Virus record (IMG/VR): IMGVR_UViG_2541047813_000005 | Coordinates: 1 to 40,559 of that record | Strand: one strand, 5' to 3' | Length of the DNA stretch: 40,559 nucleotides | Source of the DNA: a virus | Lineage: Duplodnaviria; Heunggongvirae; Uroviricota; Caudoviricetes | The notes under the pieces: model-generated | Database searches by the model: none | What the model was told of the DNA's origin: nothing | The model's input: only the letters and a program-made list of their open reading frames with translations | In this document: positions 25,145 through 25,466 of the stretch, in pieces | Layout of the letters: each line of letters opens with the position of its first letter | How positions within the stretch are numbered: position 1 is the first letter of the stretch | Translations under genes and position numbers: made by a program

Positions 25145-25466
25145 GCAAAGAGTTCATTCCGGTTATTAACCTGACTGGCTTGTCGTTAAATTGAACAGGT
25201 GGGGTGAGCTTTTATTTTGAGCAGTACGGTGTATGGCACATGCGCCGATAGCGGTCTGGATACGTTTAAGTGGCACCCTCCCTTGCTCGGGCAAACGAAC
25301 CAGGTAGCCGGAATGTGCAAGTCGAGCGGTTTTATTCCGCGCACGGGGATTCACCATCCCGGCGATTCGGTGTGACACCTCGGAAGAGACGAGGGTGCAA
25401 CGATGAGAGCATTTATGGAGCCGCGACAAAGTGTGGTGCCTTAACAGGCTAAGTGCTCTCAGCGTT

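Follow-up and report, generated by a model that had tools for sequence, protein, structure and literature searches.

What kind of gene, if any, occupies positions 25150–25466 of an epsilon15/phiV10-like podophage (Uetakevirus)? The window, by which we mean the whole 40,559-nt stretch of DNA analysed, carries a block of minus-strand genes for the portal (23139–24818), a small gp3-like protein (24833–25039) and the terminase (26581–28056), and this block is interrupted by an insert on the plus strand. In order, the insert comprises an AT-rich promoter region (28% GC in the upstream flank), the segment in question, which we refer to as the RNA element, a tRNA-Arg gene with anticodon TCT, two terminator-like hairpins and an open reading frame (ORF) of 296 amino acids (aa). 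The tRNA gene (25467–25543, plus strand), called by ARAGORN and by the Rfam tRNA model at 69.4 bits, is joined directly to the element on the same strand. By BLAST, the region of the element is 98% identical to that of phiV10. A first-pass annotation had described the segment as GC-rich and structured; the GC content is indeed raised, but only mildly (53% over 25150–25466 and 56% over 25223–25466, against 48.7% for the whole window).

Two overlapping plus-strand ORFs, at 25217–25375 (52 aa) and 25270–25452 (60 aa), exist in the segment as that annotation had noted, and ORFs of 52–87 aa are present in the window. Its impression that these ORFs look noncoding was borne out by comparison with 39 homologues (all at <96.5% identity). 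The best reading frame is stop-free in only 12 of them, and the spacing between conserved blocks takes every value modulo 3. With no frame kept open among homologues and indels that are not multiples of three, we rejected a protein-coding gene.

Searches with Rfam 15 yielded no match over the element at E ≤ 10 in the window, where only the tRNA was found, and no match to it at E ≤ 0.5 over ten homologous loci; with gathering and with permissive thresholds alike, all that came back were tRNAs and unrelated families. Neither ARAGORN nor the Rfam tRNA model called a tRNA or tRNA pseudogene within 25150–25466, the only call being the tRNA-Arg itself. This agrees with the earlier failure to fit the segment to a tRNA cloverleaf or to a known ribozyme core.

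To establish its distribution, we used 25150–25466 as a blastn query. The matching core spans about 25226–25413, often extending to 25466, and is found at ~77–82% identity in the noncoding DNA of phages whose types and gene orders otherwise differ widely. Carriers include lambdoid phages (mEp460, cdtI, 2H10, Ayreon and many Stx2c, Stx2a and Stx2k phages), P1-like phages (P1, P7, D6, SJ46 and RCS47), other Uetakeviruses, and phages of Klebsiella, Enterobacter and, nominally, Stenotrophomonas. In lambdoid and Stx phages, the element lies just after a cI-like repressor and an operator-flanked promoter; in P1, P7 and D6, it lies between tRNA-Ile and ban; in Uetakeviruses, it lies between gp3 and the terminase gene. 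It is also present in 1,837 of 5,426 complete Escherichia coli genomes, about a third, and on P1-like plasmids. For all E. coli genome matches listed, the annotation under the element is 'none'; in some phage records, hypothetical proteins such as mEp460_037 and F859_gp36 are placed over it. We found no account of it in the literature, whether searching by topic or by sequence string. For a conserved, complex RNA in the model phage P1, in Stx2-converting phages and in so many E. coli genomes, this would be a notable annotation gap.

An exact scan of viral contigs with the invariant 19-mer GGTAGCCGGAATGTGCAAG returned at least 120 loci representing at least 110 distinct variants. The same scan of one genome per species returned 24 loci, all from Enterobacterales except two from metagenome bins; both collection scans used exact patterns, which limits their reach to more distant relatives. 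Exact 19-mer matches in bins labelled Oscillospiraceae and Bacillota (L145 and L157) most likely reflect mis-binning of enterobacterial phage contigs, not a broader range of hosts, and the Stenotrophomonas host labels of BUCT708 and BUCT709 may be similarly doubtful. We also considered an ERIC/REP-type repeat and rejected it: each phage has one copy only, and the short resemblances do not fit.

The plus strand of the element folds better than shuffled sequences (z = −2.55, with 1 of 100 shuffles as good); the minus strand gives z = −1.49. From an alignment of the 39 homologues (alignment A1) we derived a structure and counted its base pairs. Compensatory changes are present in five helices, termed P1, P2, P4, P5 and P6, which together are paired in 96% of cells, against 30–64% in controls with slid partners. 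For P1, P2, P4 and P5 combined, 96.3% of cells are paired and 11 pairs are changed on both sides (90 cells), although these covariation events are not independent because the homologues are related. None of 500 shuffles was as good, and slid 3′ partners were 30–48% paired. About 130 of the 895 cells counted in these four helices, roughly one in seven, are G–U pairs. Read on the other strand, these would become A–C mismatches, which assigns the fold to the plus strand, that of the tRNA. The earlier proposal of a folded RNA rather than a protein gene was therefore upheld.

The RNA opens with a 5′ leader hairpin, P0 (25152–25219, plus strand, as are all helices below), defined by single-sequence folds and by local alignments, both to the leaders of other Uetakeviruses and to the P6 stem of two variants (L082 and L015). 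P0 is a partly degenerate copy of a P6-type stem with a GTCGTTAAAT cassette, and this cassette of the Uetakevirus leader also occupies P6 of those two variants. A pairing between the 5′ leader CATTCCGGTTA (25155–25165) and the invariant block described below (I10) was rejected, since it is found in the phiV10 clade only and erodes with no compensatory changes.

The core begins with the P1 hairpin (25227–25235 with 25239–25247, loop GCA), in which 96.9% of cells are paired and the pair at alignment columns 9:21 is A–U in 20 sequences and G–C in 19. P2 (25255–25259 with 25300–25304) encloses a variable sub-domain and changes from C–G to U–A in 11 of the 39 sequences and from G–C to A–U in two. 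Next comes the invariant 19-nt block (25303–25321), unchanged in 14 of 15 loci found by BLAST, the exception being a remnant in epsilon15 (L003). From L016 onward, the invariance of the block is by construction, as most loci were gathered by the exact 19-mer, which also biases their diversity. The AUGUGC of this block is complementary to GCACAU in the loop and 3′ strand of the P1 hairpin (25236–25241), and RNAalifold pairs the two. All of these bases are invariant, so covariation cannot test the pairing, which we regard as possible.

P3 is a short hairpin (25326–25340, GCGG/CCGC in the window) placed by a constrained fold; across alignment A1 its position is kept and its sequence is variable. 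P4 (25346–25349 with 25357–25360, loop UUCACCA) is paired in 98.7% of cells, with three pairs changed on both sides. The CACC of its loop (25352–25355) forms a pseudoknot with GGUG (25369–25372), which is likewise 98.7% paired and changes from C–G to A–U in three sequences, a weaker support than that for the five helices. P5 is the hairpin CCUCG-GAAGAGA-CGAGG (25378–25394; 97.4% paired, three pairs changed on both sides). The closing helix P6 (25398–25413 with 25452–25467), also called as inverted repeat I1, is 95.8% paired; six of its pairs are changed on both sides, and none of 500 shuffles did as well. The element thus has a conserved, strand-specific, modular and noncoding fold, found across many temperate enterobacterial phages.

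The particular helices named in the first-pass annotation fared less well than its general conclusion. The long-range complementarity of GTGGCACCCTC (25270–25280) with GAGGGTGCAAC (25391–25401) is present in the window (11 nt, 91%; I11), as is that of CCGGAAT (25308–25314) with ATTCCG (25332–25337). Among the 39 homologues, however, the former is paired in 43% of cells, no better than shuffle and slide controls, and the latter in 46.6%, the level of the controls. The third proposed hairpin, GGTG (25369–25372) with CACC (25376–25379), is also present and is paired in 92.9% of cells, but without compensatory changes. The places where it fails are precisely those where the pseudoknot is compensated, indicating that the pseudoknot outcompetes it.

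Several variants depart from this architecture. In epsilon15, nothing of the element is left but the leader hairpin, P1 and the beginning of P2, and it is therefore dispensable for at least one Uetakevirus. In truncated variants (L019, L020, L043, L044, L052, L123 and L126), the element stops after GGCGATCAG, and a hairpin, AGCCCAGACGATATCTGAGTGGCT, followed by an A run is joined to its end. This hairpin is also found after the tRNA-like module (described below) in SopranoGao (L014), and may either mark a conserved downstream boundary or be a scar left by recombination. Other variants (L006, at ~1712–2050, L010, L041, L042, L070, L080 and L103) contain an insertion of 270–450 nt after P5, bringing the whole RNA to about 750 nt. 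The insertion begins ATATCAGCCAWTCAC..TAAGCATC; its start and parts of its interior are shared between variants, and in L006 and L010 one such part has another GGAAGAG motif.

At the 3′ side, P6 encloses a swappable cassette (25414–25451 in the window), which ranges from about 40 to more than 400 nt across variants. The same cassettes are found in different backbones: the window and mEp460 share one, as do L073 and L097, and L031 and L129. The last base of the P6 3′ strand is the first base of tRNA-Arg (25467), which directly follows ...GCGUU and so has a U at position −1. Among the matches listed, a tRNA is directly adjacent on the same strand in 36 of 110 distinct variants, and in 23 of the 110, tRNA-Arg begins exactly at the end of P6.

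In most other variants, the place of the tRNA, down to the exact junction, is taken by a covarying tRNA-like module. The module consists of an acceptor-like stem of 6–7 bp (GUGGUGA/UCACCAC), a D-like hairpin, a variable middle and a T-like hairpin that abuts the acceptor 3′ strand. Its D-like and T-like loops are complementary (GCUGA:UCAGC), forming kissing loops. In the module, 97.8% of cells are paired and six pairs are changed on both sides, while the loop–loop helix is kept through wobble-preserving single changes. Some modules have a canonical T arm, CCCGGUUCGAUUCCGGG. The fold is thus fused in register either to a tRNA or to a mimic of one, and the element is probably processed at the tRNA 5′ end. 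P1-like phages carry the core alone, without P6 or the tRNA-like module, 14 nt downstream of tRNA-Ile(CAT) and upstream of ban. A model in which RNase P defines the 3′ end therefore cannot be universal.

Hairpins resembling T arms also occur within P6 cassettes (L004 1690–1800, L007 1728–1790 and L012 1616–1700), with the sequences CUGG-UUCAAUU-CCAG, GUCCG-UUCGAUU-CGGAC and GGG-UUCGAAU-CCC. They look like tRNA fragments or mimics, as though pieces derived from tRNAs were inserted and swapped there.

Upstream of the element, we read a promoter-like TTGACA (25108–25113) and TACCTT (25131–25136) on the plus strand, separated by a 17-nt spacer, which would place the transcription start at about 25143–25145. 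The same TTGACA-17-TACCYT arrangement precedes the element in SPN1S (L012), BUCT554 (L007) and ST512-KPC3phi13.3 (L013); a promoter scan gave an overlapping, weaker combination at 25101–25130. An operator-like palindrome, TTACCTTTCAGGTAA (25130–25144), overlaps the −10 hexamer. Its pattern, TTACC-N5-GGTAA, occurs 13 times in the window against 0.63 expected, a count that 0 of 100 shuffles reached. The 15-nt sites include those at 8183, 25130, 25747, 28667, 32167, 32229, 34157, 34494, 34542, 35254 and 35317. Copies lie at promoter-like sites genome-wide, including a divergent regulatory region (34494–34556), and the epsilon15 site equivalent to the palindrome at 25130–25144 is annotated as a repressor binding site. 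The pattern probably serves as operator for the phage repressor or for some other global regulator.

The other lineages show a comparable arrangement. In lambdoid phages, the element follows a cI-like repressor gene and its terminator on the same strand. Operator-like sites (TTGC-N7-GCAA) are found both between cI and cro and immediately before the element; the repressors belong to several different families. In phage P1, the element lies in the C1-controlled ban operon. It thus stands behind repressor-controlled promoters in three unrelated lineages, which suggests early lytic expression and points to a shared, RNA-borne early lytic function.

Downstream of the tRNA, a terminator scan identified two terminator-like plus-strand hairpins, each followed by a T run (25587–25622 and 25707–25722). 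Of 34 distinct contexts, 21 have a strong intrinsic terminator at most 160 nt after the tRNA or tRNA-like module, and 28 have one within about 260 nt; in many contexts the terminators are paired about 100 nt apart, as in the window.

The structured segment between the two terminators of the window (25626–25730) consists of an inverted repeat with 18-nt arms (25626–25665; I2) and a stem-loop, and closes with the terminator GCCCGG-TTCG-CCGGGC and a T run. In shape it resembles a small Hfq-type sRNA; a RyhB-like Rfam match is weak (18 bits, far below threshold). The segment is conserved in epsilon15, where the main element is deleted. Beyond it lies the 296-aa ORF (25736–26584, likely start 25766), which has its own promoter-like site (ATGACC-17-TATAAT), the −10 of which is overlapped by an operator-like palindrome of the TTACC-N5-GGTAA family. 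Inspected by eye only, its product has a hydrophobic N-terminal part and a C-terminal half rich in charged residues. Every related Uetakevirus has different genes in this slot (DUF2829, the N4 gp49/Sf6 gp66 family or small ORFs), which marks it as a hot spot for cargo.

Our leading proposal, in which we place a little less than even confidence, is that ~25144–25466 is the body of a structured phage noncoding RNA of a family not in Rfam, which is made early, released by RNase P and acts in trans. Transcription of the plus strand would start at the promoter overlapped by the operator palindrome, and would be silent in the lysogen and active early after induction or infection. The RNA would be co-transcribed with tRNA-Arg(TCT), and the two intrinsic terminators would end the unit. 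The fold itself, shown here, comprises the leader hairpin P0 and a core of P1, P2, the invariant 19-nt block, P3, P4 with its pseudoknot, and P5, with the closing helix P6 carrying the exchangeable cassette. P6 sits flush against the tRNA acceptor stem with a U at −1, and RNase P would cleave between 25466 and 25467. Cleavage would release an RNA of ~320 nt, whose 3′ end would be base-paired in P6 and thereby protected. In phages without a tRNA, this role would fall to the tRNA-like module found at that junction. The released RNA would act in trans during early lytic growth on a host component conserved across Enterobacterales, with the transcription, RNA-processing or defence machinery as candidate targets.

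The strongest competitor is a cis-acting leader that modifies RNA polymerase, namely an RNA-only processive antiterminator like HK022 put that would bind the beta-prime zinc-binding domain of the polymerase and let early transcripts pass the following terminators. In lambdoid phages, the element immediately follows the operator-flanked promoter downstream of cI and so takes the position of nutL or putL. No N protein is annotated in mEp460, whose early-left genes (035 to 025) come after the element and a strong terminator; no obvious second promoter precedes them. Moreover, in several phages the RNA begins within a few bases of the predicted start, as putL does. Phage specialists have suggested that N-less lambdoids of the mEp460 group may use a put-like RNA (PMC12315714), and the element, occupying this place, is a concrete candidate for how early transcription is handled in them.

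Nevertheless, we consider a put-like leader unlikely. The element resembles putL in neither sequence nor structure: by eye, both contain CAUGCGUCG..AGCG, but a covariance model reached only 8.1 bits (E = 0.18) in the HK022 immunity region, and we rejected homology to putL. HK022 has both putL and putR, whereas the 24.5 kb of mEp460 searched contain a single copy of the element, the PR side having none. The Uetakevirus unit is an insert that stands alone: it ends in two terminators, is convergent with the terminase gene that it faces, and is followed by an ORF with a promoter of its own. Neither this context nor that of phage P1 fits an early-operon leader, and an element of 250–750 nt with a tRNA or tRNA-like module contrasts with the ~70-nt put RNA. 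A lambda-type nut site was likewise rejected: GUGCUCUC or GUGCUCUUU in the P6 3′ strand resembles boxA (YGCUCUUUA, single-stranded and followed by a boxB hairpin in nut sites), but is paired in a covarying helix, and mEp460 has no annotated N.

On balance, we favour a trans-acting RNA over a put-like antiterminator. Promoter, RNA, tRNA and two terminators make the Uetakevirus unit self-contained, the cargo ORF having a promoter of its own; conservation of the core far exceeds that of its neighbours; and the host is the only partner common to such different phages. These features argue for a role in trans. As leader of the early-left operon of N-less lambdoids, where no second promoter was seen before the first gene, the element could equally well have a role in cis. 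A broader proposal is one that we hold only tentatively and think rather doubtful: the element would be a new class of ornate phage RNA, made up of a conserved core with a pseudoknot and of exchangeable cassettes, and excised at the tRNA or its mimic by host enzymes of tRNA processing. It would be the missing early regulator of N-less lambdoids, serving either as an RNA-only antiterminator unrelated to put or as an RNA-based counter-defence or host-takeover factor. If so, P1, Shiga-toxin phages and epsilon15-like phages would have this RNA in common.

Less probable still is a leader or processing scaffold of a tRNA operon, in which the tRNAs and tRNA-like modules are the functional products and the upstream structure aids their transcription, folding or maturation. 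The 36 of 110 variants with an adjacent same-strand tRNA, among the matches listed, would be expected of such a leader, as would T-arm-like hairpins in some P6 cassettes, such as GGTTCGAATCC and GGTTCAATTCC. However, the core keeps an invariant 19-nt block while its 3′ partner varies between tRNA-Arg, several tRNA-like modules and, in phage P1, nothing, and two thirds of the variants among the matches listed have no true tRNA. To our knowledge, ordinary tRNA leaders are short and unconserved. The view, implied by the first-pass annotation, of the segment as just a local leader of the adjacent tRNA does not hold either, as lambdoid phages carry the element without any tRNA and phage P1 carries it downstream of a different one.

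An element acting at the level of DNA, be it a single-stranded DNA structure, a site of recombination or module exchange, or a protein-binding array, appears highly improbable. The mosaic distribution and swapped cassettes do suggest recombination at conserved blocks, and base-pair counts cannot separate an RNA from single-stranded DNA of the same strand. Against this stand the strand-specific pairing with its many G–U pairs, the same-strand promoter upstream and terminators downstream, and the in-register fusion to a tRNA or tRNA-like module. A small protein encoded by one of the overlapping ORFs on either strand, as in the hypothetical proteins of some phage records, deserves almost no credence, given the interrupted reading frames, the spacing between blocks and the compensatory nature of substitutions in the helices.

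Finally, we compared the element with known RNA systems. The put RNAs of HK022 are ~70 nt long, form two stems, occur in two copies and mediate antitermination by RNA only (PMC9378689). Like put, the element is noncoding and structured, lies just downstream of a repressor-controlled early promoter in N-less lambdoids, and could act without a dedicated phage protein, as put does. The put-type position is that of the lambdoid copies, the comparison being inapplicable to those of P1 and Uetakeviruses. Unlike put, the element contains pseudoknots, a cassette-bearing helix and a tRNA or tRNA-like 3′ module, is single-copy in the window as in the part of mEp460 searched, and also occurs in P1-like phages and podophages, outside early-operon leaders.

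GOLLD and ROOL are large ornate RNAs, reportedly described by Weinberg in 2009 and 2017. They are modular structured RNAs of unknown function, are prophage-borne and commonly lie beside or contain tRNA genes. Cryo-EM structures of these ornate RNAs are available (PMC12286853). The element resembles them in its phage and prophage contexts and in the frequency of an adjacent tRNA (36 of 110 variants among the matches listed). It differs in that the Rfam models of GOLLD and ROOL do not match it, in its smaller size and in its hosts, which are Enterobacterales rather than Bacillota or environmental lineages.

The C4 RNAs of P1 and P7 and the CI RNA of P4 (RF01695) are immunity RNAs matured by RNase P, and at MALAT1/mascRNA, RNase P forms a 3′ end at a tRNA-like structure. 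The element shares with these a true tRNA or a covarying tRNA-like module at its 3′ junction, where processing would be analogous; the junction would then be a bacterial and phage case of an RNase P-defined 3′ end for a long noncoding RNA. Unlike C4 and CI, it has no match to the C4 model and no antisense target in the window, where matches were at chance level only. A genuine C4 RNA is found elsewhere in mEp460 (L001 206–293, 83.6 bits), with an a1/b1 target, alongside an isrK-like RNA (67 bits). Together, they span L001 206–394, within or next to the Rha antirepressor gene, and indicate that a P1-type antirepressor immunity module is also present in that phage.

YrlA RNAs (RF02553), which are Y RNA-like and found in some phages, consist of a stem domain and a tRNA-like domain, and the element similarly combines a stem domain with a tRNA-like module. 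The YrlA model gave no significant match over the element, a weak score of 25.6 bits (threshold 69) lying over the tRNA pair of phage P1, and no rsr gene was seen in the contexts examined. As the element shows homology to none of put, GOLLD/ROOL, C4/CI or YrlA, we assign it to none of these described families and treat it as a new one, a variation on the structured, tRNA-linked RNAs that phages carry.
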